A DNA stretch of 63,591 bases, filler included, from Cercozoa sp. M6MM (GCA_040357565.1; 8 parts of 8 records of this genome joined end to end with filler, not necessarily neighbours in it); one strand, 5' to 3'. Counted from the first letter of the whole stretch, positions 1 through 14,942 are shown. The notes: generated by a model from the letters alone, not told the origin. Numbers and translations are program-made.

Positions 1-440
1 TGAACGAACTGCAGTGTGACTGGTATGATCTCTGCTATTCACTAGGCAGTACGTAGGCCCCCCCCCCCCCCGCGGGGGGGGGGTCACAATCCTGGACGCC
101 GATGACGTCGTGGCCGACGGTCTGGTGCGCACGGTGCGCGCCGAGGCACTGCAGCTGAGGTCGCAAGGCTTTGAGGCCGCCGTGCTGGGCGCTCCTCGTC
201 TGGCGCACCTAATCATCGGCTTCGGCCGCTGTCAGGTCGTGGATCGGCCCGAACGGTATTATTCTGGGTGGTCCGTCGGACAGACGATTATTGCGAGCAA
301 TGAAGTCGTTCACACCGCCTTGATGGACAAGGAGAATAACTTTAATGTATGTTTCCGCTTGTAGCTAGGGTGTCACACACACGCACACACGCACACACAC
401 ACGCACACACACACACACGCACACACCACACAACACACAC

Positions 441-2692: not shown

Positions 2693-4472
2693 ATGTCGGC
2701 AATCCACTCAATCAACCCGGAGGCCGACGTTATCTCGCGCAACCATGCCCTTACGCTGAACATCGGAGCTGCCAACGCTATGAAGGTAATCTGTCGCTTT
2801 TTTGCAGTTTCAGCGCCAACTTCCAATGAGTTTACTCTCGTTGTGTTAACTCGTTGGATAAAACTTTGCCTGCTTTTGCTTTTCTGCCAGGTCGAAGTTT
2901 TCTTCCCTTTTCGCAAATTAAATTGATTGAGTTGCTTTGCTGTGTTTGCAGGCGCTGGTGTCGAGCAACCTGGGTCCGAGCGGCACGCTGAAGATGCTGA
3001 TCGGTGGCGCAGGCCAGATCAAGCTCACGAAGGTACAAGCTTCCTTGCTGGAGAATATAGACCGTCGGCTGCTCACGTGTTTGTGTGCGTTGTTGTTCTT
3101 GGAACAGGACGGCAGCGTGCTGCTGCGTGAGATGCAGATCCAGCACCCGACGGCCTCGTTGATCGCGCGCACGGCCGTGGCGCAGGACGACATCACGGGC
3201 GACGGCACGACGTCCTCGGTGATCTTCACGGGCGAGCTGCTGCGACAGGCCGAGCGCTACATTTCCGAAGGTACCTGCCATTCCTTTGCTGTGTTGTTTT
3301 TAGCTTTAACCCCGCGGATGTAGGTCTGCACCCGCGGGTGGTCGTTGACGGTTTTGACCTGGCTCGCGATCACGTTGTCGAACTGGTGCGTTTCTTCACA
3401 GCTGCTCAACTGCTGTATTGAGATATCACACACACACGCACACTTTGTGTAGTTGAACGAGTGGAAGGAGCGTTTCAACTTCGATGTGCACGGGTACCAC
3501 ATATGCCTATGTTCCCTCTGCTTCTTTACCCCCTCTGGGTGCAGCGAGAACGTGGACCGCGAGAAGCTGCGCGCAGTGGCGCGAACGTCGCTTGCGACGA
3601 AGCTGCACTCGGACCTGGCCGAGCTGATGACTGATGCTGTGGTACCCTGACTCTCTCTACCCTTCACTTCTTCATTCCGCCCCCCCCCCCCCGCCCGACA
3701 GGTGGACGCAGTGCTGTGCATTCGTCGTCGCGATCCGCGCGACGAGTCACGTTTCTTGCCTCTCGATCTGTTCATGATCGAGGTGCAGAGCATGAAGCAT
3801 CGCACTGACCTCGACACGCGTCTCGTTCGTGGCCTGGTACAGAGTTTTGCATGCTTACCCTTCTATACCCCTATGTATACGCATCAAGTAGGTCCTGGAT
3901 CATGGTTTCCGACACCCTGGCATGTCCAAGGACAACAAGAAGGTAGCTTTCTCTTCTGCATCCCATTCGTGTTTTATCTATACCCTCCTATCGCAGGTGT
4001 TTATCTTGACGTGCAACGTGTCGCTCGAGTACGAAAAGACCGAGGTCAACTCGGGCATCTTCTACAACTCGCCCGAGGAGCGCGAGCGCATGGTCCGCGC
4101 CGAGCGTATGCACGTGGACAACAAGGTGCGCCAGATCATCGCGCTCAAGGAGCAGGTGCGTTTTACCCCTACCCCATTTACCCCTACCCTTACCCACTTA
4201 TCCCTGTAGGTGTGCCAAGGCGAAAACGAGGACTGCTCTTTCTGCGTGGTCAACCAGAAGGGTAACTTTTACCCCACCCCTTCCCCCCCCCCCCCCCGAT
4301 GTGTGTAATTGTATGTGTATGACAGGCGTCGACCCGCTGTCGCTCGATATGCTGAACCGTGCCGGTATGAGTGACTATACCTGCATCCCCCTACCTCTAC
4401 CTCCCTCTCCAGGCATCGTGGCTCTGCGTCGTGCCAAGCGTCGCAACATGGAGCGATTGCAGCTTGCTTGCG

Positions 4473-4527
<55 letters not shown>

Positions 4528-5547
4528 TGGTGAATCCCGGTCCATTTGTAACGCCCGTTTGTAACGCCGGTTTGAATGCAGGCGGTCGTGCTGTGAACTC
4601 GCTGGACAACCTGACGCCAGAGGTGCTGGGCTACGCTGAGCACGTCTACGAGCAGGTGCTGGGCGAGGACAAGTTCACCTTCGTCGAGGGGTACTTCTGT
4701 TGCATTTACCCCCCCCCCCCTGGACTTAACTTGCCTTGTGCCTCAGGTGCCGCCATCCGCACTCATGCACGCTGCTTGTCAAGGGGTACTTTACTGTTTG
4801 GCCCACGCTGTTTGACCCCTCGCTGTTTGACTCCTCGCCCCTTATTCACTCCTGCCTGCATGCAGACCGACGGACCACGCAATCGCGCAGATCAAGGACG
4901 CTCTGCGCGACGGTGAGCGCGCCATCAAGAACGTGCTTGATGACGGCTGTGTGGTGATCTTTGCTCCCTTTCCCCCCCCCCCCCCCCATGTTACTCTTTG
5001 TCGCGTAGATCCCGGGTGCTGGTGCTTTCGAAATTGCTGCCCATCAGGTAGTCTTAGTATCTGTTACTCCCCCTCGCTGTGTTACACTCGCGTGTAGAGT
5101 CTGCGCGAGTTCAAGCGCTCGCTGCGTGGCCGCGCCAAGATCGGCGTGCAGGCCTTTGCTGATGCACTGGTAGACTGGGCTTTTACCTCCCCTCCCTCGT
5201 CCCTGTTACCTGCTTGCCTTGCAGCTCGCGATTCCGAAGACGCTGGCGCAGAACGCCGGCCACGACGCGCAGGAGACCATTGTGTCGCTGCTTGATGAGG
5301 TAGAGACCCTGCCTTTTTCTTGCCTCTCACACACCTTGACCTTTTGGTGGCACAGGCCGAGGATGCGCCGGAGGACAGTCCCGTTGGCATCGACCTCACG
5401 AGCGGCCAGATCTCGTCGCCTGTCGACGAGGGCATCTGGGACAACTTCTGCGTGAAGCGACAGATCGTGCAGCTCGGCGCCATCATCGCCAGCAAGCTCC
5501 TGCTCGTCGACGAAGTCATCCGTGCCGGCCGCCAGATGGGCAAGTAA
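2693..5547 (+). CDS. CCT6: T-complex protein 1 subunit zeta (chaperonin CCT6), 19 exons
   Basis: Motifs [81 protein letters not shown]. Removing 18 GT-AG introns (48-166 nt) leaves a 1647-nt in-frame CDS. Confidence 0.97.
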
Positions 5548-5911
5548 GCCGACTATCTGGAGCCACCCAGGCGATCTGCTCACTTCAGCTTGATTAGCAG
5601 TGATATCGATCGATTATAGACGACTGTACGTCATTTAAGAGGCATTCAGATTAGACTGGACGAACTACTGCGAATGAGACTACGCGGAGAAGCTATTGTG
5701 ACGTACGGTGAACCGAACTTGCAGTAGCACGTCGTTGTTTTCCCAAACTCAACTCCAGTACTGAGTATATTAAGTGGAGGTAATTAACAGAGCACATGGC
5801 TGGGCACTGCTGGCACCACGGCAATGGCGCGCTGCAGACGCAGCTCGAGCAGCCGGCGGAAGATCTGGCGCGCGATACTTTCGATGACCGAGGTCGTTAA
5901 ATGCGACGGCG

Positions 5912-6843
5912 CTACATGTGAATACGTTCGCGCTTGGGACTCACGGCGCCGCGAACAGCAGCCTCCTAAAATTGCAGATGCATCGACCTGAGACTGAGGG
6001 CCAAAGTAAAATTGATACGTTGCCGATCTGGCAGCCCACACATGGGCCGCAGCAGCAGCCCAGCAAGAAGTCTGCGATCCACGAGCCTTCGATACCGTAA
6101 GCGCGTCGTAAATGGTTCCTTGCTATCGCAGGCCTGAGCGTTGTAAAATTTGCTGACAGTACACTAGGGTCGGCCATAGTGATACAGTATGGATGCAGTA
6201 TGACATGACGATATATGAAGAAAGCACTCACGTCAAGCAGCAGCAAGTCGTTGCGACACCGCGTTTGTCGAACTTGCTCCTGCAAATTAAGCACAGAACC
6301 ACCTCTTTAAACTCTCTTCACAGATTATGTACTGTAGCTGCAGAAGTGGTACATAGCATGCGCAATAGAGATTTGCGTGCCGCACACATAGTTGCCAGGA
6401 CAGAGAACGAGCCATAGCACGTTAGACAAACAGTGGAGACGACCGAACGGATGCGCGAGACACGAGCACAGACCACTGCTCCAACCTGGGTTTGCTAATC
6501 TCCTCTTATTGTTCTTCTTGTTCTTCTTTTTCTTCTTCTTGTTCTTCGCCTTCCTGCTTTTGCTGTGGGCGGACCTGCTGTCCTTGCCGCCGTGGATACT
6601 GACGTTACCCCGCACACTACTGCTGTGACTTCTGTTAGCACCACCACGTAGACTACTTGAGTTTGTCCGCGTTGCCTCCTCAAAGGAGGCAATGCTCGTC
6701 AGCGGAGTCGTTTCGCTTCCTGTGTCGTCCAATTCCAGTTCGCTGCTCCGAGTACTCGAGGCGGAAGTATCGCTCGTGTGGCCACCATTCTCACTCAGGT
6801 CGGTACTTCCACTGTGTGTGCAACTACTAGACGTGGTGGACAT
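5912..6843 (-). CDS. PLAC8/cornifelin family Cys-rich protein with S/T-rich and K-rich N-terminus
   Basis: WSSGLCSCL..CPG, then RNHLRRAYGIEGSWIADFLLGCCCGPCVGCQ. The exact last exon is uncertain. Confidence 0.8.
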
Positions 6844-7285
6844 GCTTCAGCATCTGCAATGCAGCGGTTTCAATCAACAGAGCATTGCTCGTACTATACA
6901 GAATTCGTCGGAATCCCGAGCCGTCGGTCGGACCCCAATACCTCGTCGTCCAACGATTTAAATCGATGGGGTCAGTAAAATACGGACGCAGTCAAAACGT
7001 TGCACTACAGCTACTGTAGTTAGTTAGTTTCCTCTACTAGAAGACCGTAGCTAGTTTTAGTTCTGTTAGTACGCAGTACACAGCACGCCTGGAGCAACCG
7101 ATCAACCTGGGTTCATCCCCGCATACCTGAGTCAAGTCGGAGACTGCACGTGCATATCTGAGTCAAGTCTGTAACAGCATGGTAACAACTTGGACGTATA
7201 CCTAGTAGCCTACTAAACAAAAGTGGATTCTCTCGCATCGTTTCGTTTAGGTCGACTCGACTCGACTTGACTCGTCCACATCAGT

Positions 7286-10200
7286 TTAGTAGTCGCGGTG
7301 GTAGGAGCCTGAGTTGTCGCGCCGGTTGTTGTAGCCGCCGCCGTAGCCGTTGTTGCCGCGACGGTTGTTGTAGCCACGCTGATGACCACGCTGATGACCA
7401 CGGTGGTTGCCACGCTGATGACCACGCTGATGACCACGGTGGTTGCCACGCTGATGGCCACGGTGGTTGTTGTAGCCACTGTCGTCGTAGTCACCTTGCT
7501 GCTGGTATTCGTCCTGCTGGTGCTCGTACTGCTGCTGGTCTTGCTGCTCGTCGTGTTGCTGTTGGTGTTCCGACTGCTGCGACACGTTCGACTGTTGTCG
7601 CTGCTGTCGCTGCTTGATCCACTGGGCGCGCTTGTGTGCCTACGGGGGGGGGGGGGGGGGGGCTAAACACCTCTAGGTGGAAAGAGCACCGACAAACCTT
7701 GTGCGTCTGCGGCGGCGGCACGCGACGCAGCCACGCGAAAGTCGACTCGACGTGCAGGTCACGGTCAGTCACCACACTGTCCGTGTAGACTACACACCGC
7801 ACACATTCCTTTATACTAACGCTCCCCCTGTCCCCTGGTACCACTCATGTCGGCCGTGCCGTCAGACAGGGCGACACAGGGCGCACGCGGCGCCTGCGAC
7901 TGAATCTGCGTCTTCTTGCACTTGTCGTACGGCTGCCAGGCCGACTGTACAGAGGCACAGAGTACAGTACACAGTGTGCACTAACTGGACAAATTAAGGA
8001 AGCGACACACGAGGGCCATACCGAAGGATCACCGAGTGCGTGCTTGGGTCGCTGGATCCAACGCTGCTGCACAGCGTGCTCGATGCCGTCGGAAGCTACG
8101 TCGCGCTTCAGCAGCTTGCGACATGCAATCTGGGCCTGTTCAGGTGGGGTAAGGGTAGTACTGAGGGTAGGACAGTACATAAGGTAGGCATAGGGTAGTG
8201 TAGGTGTGGTGTGTAGGGTAGCAAAAATAGGGTAGACATAGGGTAGGACCGGTTAGTATACAGAGTAGTATAAAGATAGCAAAAGAGCAATACATGTAGT
8301 AGCACATAAGGATAAATGTGGGCAACTACCGCAAGGCAACGCAACGTGAGTTCGTGCGGACCGTGAGTCACAACGAAGGGTGTCGAGTGCACCGACAAAA
8401 CACACACGGCGTCCTTCTCGCCTGCCGTCGCTTTGCCGAGATTCACCGTGGTCTCGCCATCTGTGCAGACACAAGCATTTACCTCTCTCTTCACCCCTGT
8501 TTACCCCCCCCCCCAGAAGAAAGCTACCGGTGCCAACGGCGTCCTCGACGCGCTTGCCTTCGATTTCGAAAGTGATGGCGCGACGCACGTCGTCAAACGT
8601 GTCCACAAGTGCCGACTCGGCCAGTGCGCGCGGACGACTGACACCCCACAACGTAGCCTTAACTAAACATGACATACACCAGTACAGCAGGGTACCTGCG
8701 CTTGCGTCGTGAGTGCTCCGACTCGAGTTTCTCGTGTGCTGCGGGGAGAGAGAGAGAGAGAGGGGGTAGAGGGGCAAGGAGGGGCATAGAGGGTGTAAGG
8801 ATAGGGGGGCTACCCTTCTTGCGACGCAGACGGTGCGTGGCCAGCGTGCGCAACTCGTCGAGCCACATGGTCGGGTCGCTCTGCCGCGCGCGATTGAGCG
8901 CGCCAACGCAGCCGACCGACGTGGCCAGCGTCGCCTGCTTGAGTGCCTGCACCAGCGACGGCATGCGCAGCGGCGTCTCCTCGCACGCCTTCTCGGCCTC
9001 GATCAGCACGTGCAATGCTATCACACACGAGGTACTTGGTGTACCTAGAAGTACGATCTATAGGATGTAAGATAATAAAGGGTACCACGTGCACATGCGA
9101 TCTCGGTGGCCATGTAGCGCGACGGAGCGAAACCCGCGGCCACATCGGCACTGGAGGTATCACACACCAGTAAAAACTGCAGGCATCAAGATACCAAAGC
9201 TAAAGTACCCCCAGCCAAAGCGCACAACGCAGCAGTAAACGGCATTGTTGGACGAGTCCGCCTTCTGCGCCAGCGGCGGCAGCGACTTGTCCTCGCGCAG
9301 ACGCGCCGCCAGTCGCTTGCGCAGCAGCCACGTCGGCAGCGAGCGCTCCGACACCGCAAAGTGACCCGCGCGGAACACACGCGTCACTGCAATGAATCGC
9401 TTTCGCGCTGCACACAAGACAAAAGAAATAAAGAAAAAGCAAAAATAAAAGTAAAAGCCAGGCAAAAATAGAAGTAAAAGCCAGGCAAAAATAGAAGTAA
9501 AAGCCAGGCAAAAAGAGGACAAAAGCCAAAGACAAGCTACTCGACTCGTCGGTGCCACACGCGTTGCGCAGAGTCGCCAGACGCTCCAGCAACAGTCCGC
9601 GGAAACTCACAAACTGGCGCGACACGCGCATCACATTTGCGAGCAGCGCCGGCGTCCACAGGTTGTGCACGAAGCTCGTGCTACAGACCACAGATCACAC
9701 TTCAAGAGAGCCCCCCCCACCCCACACGGTTCAAGTCAGCAAATACCTCTGCTTGAGCGGGTCGTAGCCAGAGGTGGCTGCCTTGAGGAAGCAGCATGCC
9801 ACTAGTGCCTCAACCACATCGCCTAGCACCTTGTCGCCGTCCAGATGCGTGCAGAACTATACAAAGTGACTTTATTTTAAATGAACCGAAATGTCCGAAA
9901 ACAAGAAGCAAAACAAAACAAAAACACACCTCCTTGCCGGTCGTAGGCCAGCGCACGAGTGTGTGGATGTTGTGCTTCAGTGCACACCAGCGCTGGCACG
10001 CATTGCTACCGAGTCGCTTGACGTGACGCTCAGCACCCTAAAACCAGAATCACTTTTTTGCAACCCCTTCCCATAAAGCATCACAGCAAGCAGAGCTACC
10101 TCACGCCAGTTGCTCTTGAGTTGCTGCTGCGAGAGAGAGCGATGCGCCACCAAGGTGTACACGGCATCGCCAAGGTACTCGAGACGCTCGTAGCTGCGGC

Positions 10201-11100
10201 GCTTGTCGTCCACGGCCGAGGAGCGCGGCGGCGTCAGCGCCAGCGCGAGCAGCGACTCGTCCACCTGACCGAGCGGACGCAGCACCTTGGCGTGCCCGTC
10301 GGCGAGCGGCAGTTCCTCGAGCTTCTTGACCTTTTCTGCACATATGAGACACACCAATAGACCTAGGTTTATTTAAGTGAACTGAACACGAAAATAAAAC
10401 ACGACAAATGAAACGAGAGAACGAGAGCCGTAGAAAGGTCAAAGTTTACGCTTGCGAGCGAACGGAGCGAGCCAGAGTGCAGCAACTCGACGCGAAGAAG
10501 CCACCGAATAGCGCACAGCACGCTGGATCAGCGAGAAAGACGCCTTCTTGGACTGGGAACATTAAAGCAGAATCAACATACTGACACAGAAAAACGAAAA
10601 AGTATCCAAGAGTACCACGGCCAGAGCGCCAAGCAGAAGCAAAAACTCGCGTCGCATCGCAGCTTCGTCGAGTTCCGGCGAACGAGGGATCACTGCGCGC
10701 GCCATGCGAGCCTGTACAAACAGTCCAGTCATAAAGCAATAGGGGAGGATGGAGGATGGAGGAAAGCGAGCAAGGGTCAGAAGTACCACAACGCAGACGC
10801 GCGTGAGGCGATGAACGTGCGCAGTGAGATTGACGTCGTTCGGATAGGCCTCAAAGCAATGCCATGCGGCAACACACAGCAGCGCGGCCTCACCACACTT
10901 CATCAGCGTGTCAGTCGCCATGTTGTTGAGCTCTTTCGGCGTCAGCTTCTTCAGCGACGCCTCCTCGCCCAGCAACGTCAGGAAGTGCCAGAAGCGACGG
11001 CGCAGCGTGTCCGCCGCGCTGTACTCGCCCGGCACACGACTCTGCATCCGACGTTTCTCTACACAATTCGACACATCACTCACCCACGAAGAGGGGTATT
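7286..11100 (-). CDS. Compact Dicer/Drosha-like protein: degenerate RNase III, intact RNase III, two dsRBD-like segments, Q/RG-rich tail
   Basis: Intact motifs SYERLEYLGDAV (about 10160-10195) and DKVLGDVVEALV (about 9800-9836). The upstream degenerate copy reads DTLMKCGEAAL..CFEAYP and RREFLLLLGAL. The exons traced join in frame and lead to TAA at 7286. The start codon is uncertain (up to about 11310). Confidence 0.8.
9441..9509. repeat. 23-bp tandem repeat x3 in an RNase III gene intron
   Basis: Unit AAAAATAGAAGTAAAAGCCAGGC, which reads GCCTGGCTTTTACTTCTATTTTT on the sense strand. Confidence 0.9.
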
Positions 11101-11447: not shown

Positions 11448-12825
11448 ATGAGTGGCAGCGTTGCTGAGTCACAGCGAGAAATCCAGGCGTACTTGGAGGA
11501 GCACCGCATCTCACAGTTGCTGAACGCGTGCTTCACTCGCCTGCTCCTCACGCGGGTAGCTTTTTGCCTTTTCATGCTAAAACTGCAACCAAGAATATTA
11601 CTAGTTCGCTGTTTCAACCGATAGCCCGAGGCACCACGTGCTTTCCTTGCGGAGACTTTTGCGCGCATTCCAGCCATCAAAGTCTTTCGAAATGGCGAAG
11701 CGTCCCAGGAGAATTACCGTGCAATTTTCGAACTGTTTGACGGACACAACAAAGACCAAATTCTGAGCGAGCAGGCCCGGGATGCTCTTGTGTTGGCAGG
11801 TTTTGGTGAAGCGGTGCGTTGCACTTTTGGAACGATCCTCTGTCGGCTTTTGCACATTACTTTGGTCAGGAAGCTGAGGCTGCAGTTAAGCAAGTTTCAG
11901 TCGAAGAAAGTGCCATCTCTTTTGACGCGTTCTATTCACTGTGGTACCTCTGTTTTTCCACTCTGGCTTAGTCATTGTCCCTTGATCAACGCAATTCGGC
12001 GTAGCAAGCCGCAAGTCAAGGACGTCAGCAGCACTGAAGCTGAAAAGGGCACCTCTGTCGAAGAGGTTGAACAAGAAGAGGCTTCGACCGAGTCACTGAA
12101 GGGCGACGAAGAACCCGTCGCTGTCGAAGAGCCCGAGCCCGAGCCCGAGGTCGAAACTGAGCCAGAAGCTACCGAAGAAGCGGTCGAAGCTGAGAAAAAC
12201 GAAGAGGAACAGACGACTGAAGAATCTGTTGCTGCTGGTATGCGTCGGTCCATTCGTTTTTTTTTCACCAACTGGTGTAACCGCAGAGGAACAGCAAGAC
12301 GAGCAGTCGGAGGAGCAAGCATATCAGATGGAAGAGGAAGAAACCCAGCAAGAGGAAGCTCAGCAGGAGGAGGAAGCTCAGCAGGAGGAGGAGGCGCAGC
12401 AAGAGGAAGAGCAACAACAGGAGGACGAGCATCGACAGGAGGAAGAGGAGATGATTTCGGCGGAAGCTCAGGAGCAAGTGCCTGTGGAGGAGCAAGTGCC
12501 TGTGGAGGAGCAAGTGCCTGTGGAGGAGCAAGTGCCTGTGGAAGAAGTGCAGACGCCTGCCAGTGAAGAGCAAGCCCAAGAGGCGCAAGAACAAGAAGTG
12601 TCGCAACAGCACGAAGAGGCCAACGAAGAGGAGCCTGAGGACGTCGCCACCGAGGCCGAGAACGTCGAGTCCGCCGAGTCCGAGGCGCTTGAAGACGCTG
12701 CCACTGAGGCCGAAAACGTCGACTCCGTCGAAGAACAGGCTGAAGAACCGACCACGCCTGAGCAAACGACGGAAGCCAAAGGCTCCGCCGAGCACGCTGA
12801 AGAGCCCAAGCTTTCTGAAGACTGA
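11448..12825 (+). CDS. EFCAB10-like protein (RIIa/Dpy-30-type docking domain + EF-hand) with long E/Q-rich tail
   Basis: MSGSVAESQREIQAYLEEHRISQLLNACFTRLLLTR|PEAPRAFLAETF..NYRAIFELFDGHNKDQILSEQARDAL, followed by an acidic tail with EQVPVE repeats. Confidence 0.65.
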
Positions 12826-13538
12826 GCTGAGACACAACTCGACCGCCCGGCCATCCGAACTGAACTGAACTTGAAGTTCATTCATTGTTTCACTTTTCCG
12901 GGCGCTTGTGCAGAAGCGAAGCTTATTGTTACCGCATGACGGGGCCGAATTGCCAGTAATTTAGCCGAAATTTACATCAAATTCCATTAAACTGTCCTGT
13001 TAAACGTCGACATCAAGGTCATCATCACACTCTGGACCTCCTCATCCTCGTCGTCCACCTCCTCATTGTCGCTCTCGTCGTCCACCTCCTCATCGTCGCT
13101 CTCGTTGTCCACCTCCTCGTCGGTCTTGACGCTCCACCACATCAAGCGCACCGTCATCGACGGACAGCGGATACGCATGGCGGGGCCAAATTACCTTTTG
13201 CCAAAGCTGCAAGTTACCTTTGAAAACAGGCAGAAAGATGGCGAGCTTAAGTGGTCAGACATATACCTACTATGTCATTCCATGCCAGCGGGCGTGCCAA
13301 TGATCAAAGAAACAACATGTCCCGTGGTCGTATCGATTCCTCCACGTCGATTGTGAGCAATCAAACGAATTTGAAACTGACGTGAAGCGAAGTTAGACTT
13401 CAGCCAACGTGAGTGGCGTGTATCCGAATGAATTTCGCGAACGGTGAACTGAAGAAAGAAAAAAAGAATTTCGCAAAAACTGAAACGAAAAGGCTAAAGC
13501 GCTGGGGCAACTCGCTCTCACTCGGTGTGTCAGTTCGG

Positions 13539-14805: not shown

Positions 14806-14842
<37 letters not shown>

Positions 14843-14942
14843 NNNNNNNNNNNNNNNNNNNNNNNNNNNNNNNNNNNNNNNNNNNNTTAATTAATTAANN
14901 NNNNNNNNNNNNNNNNNNNNNNNNNNNNNNNNNNNNNNNNNN
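14843..14942. other. Artificial contig-join spacer (N-run, TTAATTAATTAA, N-run); same at 18979-19078, 36875-36974, 43399-43498, 45154-45253, 55735-55834, 60968-61067
   Basis: The same 100-nt construct with a six-frame stop linker occurs seven times, and genes are truncated beside it. Confidence 0.97.

Follow-up and report, generated by a model that had tools for sequence, protein, structure and literature searches.

Background

According to PMC3867540, in Dicer and Drosha the two RNase III domains in tandem make up an intramolecular pseudo-dimer, which has two cutting sites, and dimers that have one site nick. Well-tested examples of one-site RNase III enzymes are known only from trypanosome heterodimers, engineered mutants and the viral protein R343. 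Here we describe a gene from an amoeba placed within Apofilosa, Rhizaria (as reported in PMC11069148), which was sequenced as Cercozoa sp. M6MM (GCA_040357565.1) and is now named Lemnamoeba sinaloensis (as given in PMC13746701). The gene lies in a stretch of 63,591 nucleotides (hereafter the window, the whole of the DNA analysed), is real and codes for an intact RNase III domain and, probably, a dead tandem partner in front of it.

The closest single-chain precedents are viral. As described in PMC4402537, Mimivirus R343 has two RNase III-like domains in tandem, of which the first is intact while the second lacks metal ligands, and the protein cleaves within mRNA hairpins in vitro; R343 and Megavirus Mg559 are proposed there as hairpin nickases. 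Both resemble the M6MM protein in having, in one chain, one domain with and one domain without metal-binding residues, together with domains that bind double-stranded RNA (dsRNA). Compared by description, the order is reversed, since the first domain of R343 is live and the second dead. R343 is also viral and its gene lies beside a poly(A) polymerase gene, whereas the M6MM gene is cellular, contains 16 introns, has non-polymerase neighbours and encodes a different tail.

Two further groups show the loss of one site. In trypanosomes, KREN1-3 and KREPB proteins, a catalytic and a non-catalytic RNase III, are described as cutting a single strand (PMC3867540; PMC9508840), but they are separate polypeptides of the mitochondrial editosome, with zinc fingers, and are directed by guide RNAs (same sources). 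A sequence-only reading of this DNA had named the trypanosome pair as its precedent and missed both R343, a closer parallel in a single chain, and the degenerate Dicers. For the latter, a survey of 72 Dicer homologues (PMC4791657) lists Trichoplax, diatoms, Naegleria and Albugo as having degenerate RNase III domains; these are natural losses of ExxGD or DxxE in one domain, including RIIIa of T. adhaerens DCL1b, and are reported there as motif deviations only. A RIIIa-dead Dicer is also known as the engineered mutant D1320A (described in PMC12700799). The dead/live single-chain design thus already has precedent in R343 and the degenerate Dicer domains, which lowers the surprise.

With the animal Drosha/Dicer core the M6MM protein shares the order RIIIa-RIIIb-dsRBD (dsRBD, dsRNA-binding domain; domain 1 as predicted) and residues N5 and K6 of the catalytic set E1, D2, D3, E4, N5 and K6, as defined in PMC9291653. 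Its inter-domain spacing is similar to that of fungal Dicers. Both domains are active in Drosha and Dicer, whereas domain 1 of the M6MM protein is without catalytic residues and the protein has no helicase, DUF283, platform or PAZ. By analogy, the best reading is that it works like R343 or KREN/KREPB, and it counts as neither a canonical Dicer nor a canonical Drosha.

Results

One gene with an intact RNase III domain

The gene model was built from the minus strand, read in three frames and joined at GT-AG boundaries. It contains 16 introns, all GT-AG and about 50-194 nt long, and after splicing through them all the motifs quoted in the sequence-only reading lie on the minus strand in one frame. 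Exon 4, used as search query, returned one protein, P0001 (847 amino acids), which NCBI lists as MHM6MM_005216, a hypothetical protein of Cercozoa sp. M6MM. The spliced model is identical to P0001 except for 25 residues where P0001 reads through intron 10; therefore, the exons belong to one gene and are not separate genes, a possibility that had been raised earlier. The span first proposed, 8000..11100, ends too early for the gene, and about 700 further bases, down to 7286, encode a region of about 85 amino acids and a Gln-rich, then RGH/RG-repeat tail. The features on which the argument depends are the following:

7286..11047, minus strand: whole gene, 17 exons, 822 amino acids (open frame with a single terminal stop)
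9623..10309, minus strand: domain 2, intact RNase III, about residues 163-324 (Pfam, hidden Markov model (HMM) and AlphaFold2 (AF2))
10451..11017, minus strand: domain 1, about residues 11-153, fold predicted as RNase III, catalytic residues lacking (ESM Atlas, helix pattern)
8983..9604, minus strand: dsRBD1, with insertions, about residues 331-451 (sequence profile and model)
8082..8883, minus strand: dsRBD2, around residues 485-620 (485-645 in P0001), interrupted by large insertions (predicted structure)

Domain 2 is an RNase III domain with a complete catalytic set. PF00636 and PF14622 each matched residues 179-295 above the cut-off (E 3e-10 and 1e-9, respectively), and the HMM score of 53.5 bits was reached by none of 200 shuffled sequences. 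The four catalytic acids are E206, D210, D281 and E284 (E1, D2, D3 and E4), as the sequence-only reading had claimed, and N244 (N5) and K277 (K6), the extra catalytic residues of eukaryotic RNase III, are also present. K6 is not exclusive to the eukaryotic enzymes, because 27 of 58 viral domains carry Lys at that site. In an AF2 model guided by an alignment of 29 bacterial RNase III sequences, domain 2 was confidently folded and matched solved RNase III domains (Z 17.1, root-mean-square deviation (rmsd) 1.9, 142 residues aligned).

A predicted dead RNase III domain at the N-terminus

Judging by predicted structures, domain 1 very likely adopts the RNase III fold. The best two structural rows of ESM Atlas for residues 1-160 were RNase III proteins, namely an oomycete cluster, aligned over 148 residues at a template-modelling (TM) score of 0.71, and one from giant viruses (134 residues, TM 0.64, aligned part PF14622), whereas the remaining 8 of the 10 rows had TM 0.36 or below. 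Both leading scores lie below the bar set by the tool for naming a family and compare predicted models on both sides. RNase III clusters also made up 3 of the 6 feature rows listed, at lead level (0.86-0.88). The landmarks LTP, GEA, FEAYP and LGA of domain 1 stand in RNase III order, and its coding sequence has a normal GC content at third codon positions (GC3) of 0.72.

The first catalytic motif was aligned consistently. Unguided hhalign paired DTLMKCGEA with ERLEFLGDA and FEAYP with the F..FP motif (E 0.07), and all 8 of the glocal runs aligned G52-E53 with the signature G-D, so that E1 is replaced by Met and D2 by Glu; with exon 2 alone, hhalign gave a weak match in an unrelated register. 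In the favoured register M49 stands at E1, E53 at D2 and R108/L111 in the second motif, the signature reads MKCGE, and V84 and A104 occupy the Asn and Lys sites. The second motif, read as RREFLLLLGAL (R108, L111, then LLLGA), fits a buried helix, 103-119, present in both models, and with this register E4 of domain 1 lies 92 residues from the domain 2 signature, compared with 85-89 in 13 of 13 fungal Dicers. Asp and Glu are both absent from residues 110-159. For this reason domain 1 would be dead in the leading registers, and the choice among registers for the second motif leaves that conclusion intact; a register that keeps an acid there would need E100/E103 or E109 and is unlikely. In E. coli RNase III, the changes E41A, D45E, D114A and those at E117 each impair cutting (PMC8708148, Table 1).

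Several results weigh against a dead RNase III domain in this position, or against the function proposed for it below. The local score of domain 1 with an HMM of 107 RNase III domains was not above chance (335 of 2000 shuffles as high), nor were those with other profile sets (1959/3000, 2039/3000 and 786/2000); 261 of 3000 shuffles scored as high in a comparison with domain 2, and glocal scoring was marginal at best (between 4 and 172 of 300 shuffles reached the score, depending on which of 8 settings was used). The top feature rows of ESM Atlas for residues 1-160 were DUF3871 and not RNase III. Neither AF2 model folded domain 1 as RNase III: the single-sequence model was unusable, with a predicted local distance difference test (pLDDT) value of 40, and the guided model drew residues 118-137 into domain 2, MAFFT having set bacterial helix 1 on 115-137. 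The RREFLLLLGAL register was picked by 0 of 8 glocal runs, 6 of which placed ALI on S126-L127-I128, and its distance from signature to D3 is 62, against 75 or more in all 97 domains measured (the other 10 of the 107 had no matchable motif). No orthologue was found in searches of representative proteins and metagenome contigs, and the sole pointer to substrate or location is a stretch resembling a nuclear localisation signal, seen by eye.

The sequence-only reading of this segment has therefore fared unevenly. Its RNase III fold agrees with the ESM Atlas structures and disagrees with the sequence tests against shuffles, and the guided AF2 model recovers the fold for domain 2 and not for domain 1. 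Likewise, the DTLMKCGEA register is upheld by hhalign and all the glocal runs, whereas RREFLLLLGAL is chosen by none of the latter.

The main rival starts from the same residues. Yeast Rnt1/Pac1 and plant RTL2-type class I/II enzymes, which function in nuclear RNA maturation as two-site homodimers, have one live RNase III domain, which comes after a helical N-terminal segment and before one or more dsRBDs; the N-terminal part of Rnt1/Pac1 stabilises the homodimer (PMC8708148). The first 160 residues of the M6MM protein could be a helical dimerisation or scaffold domain as in Rnt1, so that two chains would form a homodimer cutting both strands. This layout, the failure of the sequence tests to show domain 1 as RNase III, and K50 at the position of an aromatic signature residue (Y207 in domain 2) are all consistent with such a homodimer. 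We nevertheless consider it unlikely. Over 134-148 residues, the model that ESM Atlas gives for residues 1-160 can be superposed on RNase III domains, so that this part is predicted to have the RNase III fold itself, unlike that of Rnt1/Pac1; the landmarks follow RNase III order, and Pfam at E up to 10 reports no Rnt1 N-terminal family.

The dsRNA-binding domains and the missing ruler

Two dsRBD-like segments had been noted in the sequence-only reading, and they stand on different footings. dsRBD1 scored 10.6 bits with a 94-sequence profile, a value reached by none of 2000 shuffles (89 of 2000 were as high with a 19-sequence profile), and in the guided AF2 model it folded as alpha-beta-beta-beta-alpha, matching a dsRBD chain with Z 7.6 and rmsd 2.4 over 74 aligned residues. 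For dsRBD2 the sequence test was negative (503 of 2000 shuffles as high), and the assignment comes from predicted structure, 79 of the 83 residues of a dsRBD cluster in ESM Atlas being aligned (TM 0.73 by target). A basic cluster inside dsRBD2 (8835-8628, minus strand; residues 501-525) resembles a nuclear localisation signal by eye, and this cluster and the RG-rich tail hint at a nuclear location.

No PAZ, platform or helicase precedes domain 1, and Pfam at E up to 10 lists no such family. Only about 10 residues stand before domain 1, so there is no long N-terminal region as in Drosha. The sole minus-strand frame upstream has GC3 0.42, a non-coding codon use, compared with 0.72-0.81 in the gene; an additional upstream coding exon joined through a 29-nt intron was ruled out on this ground. 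Because the divergent neighbour has its ATG at 11448 and the upstream frame is non-coding-like, there is no room for a PAZ or helicase; the earlier claim had been of no room for a helicase and little for a PAZ.

Proposed mechanism and alternatives

Taken together, the predicted fold of domain 1 and the analogies set out above make a Drosha/Dicer-like monomeric nickase, with a dead and a live RNase III domain in one chain, the probable design, and the one-strand-cutting pair of the sequence-only reading stands as the best one. The dead N-terminal domain would fold against the live one to leave a single cutting site, in the same intramolecular pairing as that of Dicer and Drosha, and the enzyme would nick one strand of an RNA duplex or hairpin. 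The dead domain would complete the valley that binds dsRNA, and the dsRBDs may select the cutting site. In Dicer, the 3' arm is described as the target of RIIIa and the 5' arm as that of RIIIb, and mutation of RIIIa as leaving a nick in the 5' arm (PMC12700799); by analogy, the M6MM enzyme might nick the 5' arm of a hairpin. Its likeliest job would be the site-specific maturation of a structured nuclear RNA (pre-rRNA, small nuclear or nucleolar RNA, or mRNA 3' ends), with a parallel in the action of Mimivirus R343 on viral mRNA. The maturation of hairpin RNAs, which we propose by analogy, is plausible at somewhat less than an even chance; it is preferred to RNA silencing because a linear transcript is severed by one nick, whereas making small-RNA duplexes takes two cuts and a ruler.

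The same one-site nickase acting in silencing has some attraction. It would replace a missing Dicer, either making small RNAs through two rounds of binding or two molecules, or passing nicked hairpins to Argonaute. The Dicer of budding yeast has two dsRBDs without a PAZ. In Dicer-mutant cells, nicked precursors are described as being loaded by Argonaute (PMC12700799). Plasmodiophora, also rhizarian, is reported to have no Dicer and to make 21-nt RNAs with a Drosha-like protein of two RNase III domains and a dsRBD (PMC13547706), so that, as described there, a PAZ-less Drosha-like enzyme can run RNA interference in Rhizaria. That protein, PbDRL of P. brassicae, is described in the same source as giving 21-nt products and having the Drosha Bump helix and one dsRBD; by description, the M6MM protein differs in its dead first domain, its two dsRBDs and the mere 10 or so residues before domain 1. 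With no PAZ ruler, and with one site being ill-suited to the production of duplexes, silencing is an unlikely role for the M6MM enzyme.

A bolder form of the nickase proposal, drawn from the same analogies, is that a naturally RIIIa-dead, ruler-less Drosha/Dicer, nicking only the 5' arm of hairpins, runs a small-RNA or RNA-maturation pathway in Lemnamoeba. We regard this as a long shot, and as equally doubtful the idea that such an enzyme is the mirror image, in a cell, of both Mimivirus R343 and the hotspot mutants of human DICER1. Were it true, and were the gene the only RNase III of the genome beside an Argonaute, it would define a nick-based silencing route in Rhizaria. Searches of the supplements of the two M6MM papers gave no Dicer, Argonaute or Piwi rows, although annotation tables may lie in further files.

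Quite improbable is a mainly non-catalytic role in binding dsRNA or in ribosome assembly, as for RNC1 or mitoribosomal mL44, in which cutting would be incidental or absent. The best feature rows of ESM Atlas for residues 300-735 are mL44-type dsRBD clusters (0.82-0.84, lead level), and the protein is very divergent, with an end branch of 2.74. All six catalytic residues are, however, kept in an otherwise highly diverged domain 2, and this domain is intact whereas RNC1 is described as having both domains dead (PMC3867540). The N-terminus, with its early acids E8 and D13, is unlike a mitochondrial presequence (by eye), which also counts against this reading. Finally, an ordinary two-site Drosha-like nuclease, with domain 1 misregistered and still cutting through E53 with E100/E103 or E109, is very improbable, since, despite acids at 53, 100, 102, 103 and 109 and a second motif whose register is not fixed by the alignments (the one first proposed appearing in 0 of 8 glocal runs), the register common to all runs puts M49 at E1 and E53 at D2, and the E100/E103 register needs a distance from signature to D3 of 54 and puts Arg at a conserved Gly.

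If the monomeric nickase reading is true, this native cellular enzyme, a single chain whose first domain is dead, would show how nickases are made out of Dicer/Drosha scaffolds. It would supply a second data point on the barely studied RNA-processing machinery of Rhizaria and offers a predicted natural dsRNA nickase for characterisation. The idea is testable because, according to PMC13746701, the amoeba is in culture and has a chromosome-level genome; the significance is capped by this being a single gene, without known orthologues, and a design with precedent.

Relatives and phylogeny

Residues 1-340 retrieved the protein itself and 12 fungal Dicer-like proteins (E 0.03-0.9). Residues 150-735 gave self and one match at E 5.2, and exons 1-2 with intron 1 read through, searched against 1.84 billion representatives, gave self and one repetitive protein. 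Metagenome and viral contigs yielded no relatives, the plasmid search two weak matches (one annotated rnc) and the phage search four matches at chance level. No paper on this protein was found in the literature, where coverage is thin for subscription papers. In a quick tree that set domain 2 beside 107 others, no Drosha among them, the M6MM domain formed the long branch mentioned above, with fungal RIIIa rows nearby. Because of that branch, and because those rows had been preselected by similarity, no placement is claimed.

Gene structure and remaining features

The other features of the gene are these:

Exons 1-9, minus strand: 11047-10787, 10711-10616, 10552-10450, 10335-10100, 10037-9930, 9856-9747, 9680-9541, 9407-9209, 9150-9086
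Exons 10-17, minus strand: 9017-8814, 8738-8696, 8637-8528, 8460-8330, 8135-8022, 7944-7842, 7789-7698, 7639-7286
7698..8081, minus strand: region of about 85 amino acids, coding-like (GC3 0.80, residues 621-710), with nothing listed by Pfam at E up to 10
7286..7639, minus strand: Gln-rich acidic stretch (isoelectric point (pI) 4.4), then basic GHQR/RG-repeat tail (pI 11.7), from sequence

Across 7286-11047, GTA starts 14 of the 16 intron donors and an exonic G precedes most of them. Intron 10 (8739-8813, minus strand) is in-frame, 75 nt long, 83% pyrimidine and bordered by GT-AG, and its read-through adds a Pro/Leu-rich 25-mer. The read-through in P0001 was set aside on account of this length, composition and borders, and is probably an annotation error or a retained intron. 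Within 7842-8060 (minus strand), where Pfam lists nothing, HALGD is followed about 28 residues on by VALSDG. This spacing recalls PP2C phosphatase motifs, a likeness which we take to be chance.

Genomic surroundings

A six-frame scan of the window (1554 frames) gave RNase III matches in this gene only. The divergent neighbour (11448-12900, plus strand) shows a weak EF-hand match, to EFCAB10 (E 0.026), and its long repetitive tail is rich in Glu; only 400 bases separate its start codon from that of the gene. On the other side lie a PLAC8-family gene (5700-6900, minus), a TCP-1/cpn60 chaperonin (2900-5550, plus) and a DUF3228 gene (1400-2000, minus). These neighbours (PLAC8-like, chaperonin, DUF3228 and EF-hand) give no functional clue. 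Paired 44-base N runs occur at 14843-14942 and at 6 similar sites. The first of them starts directly behind base 14842, the length listed for the contig of P0001, so the window appears to join several contigs or scaffold pieces.

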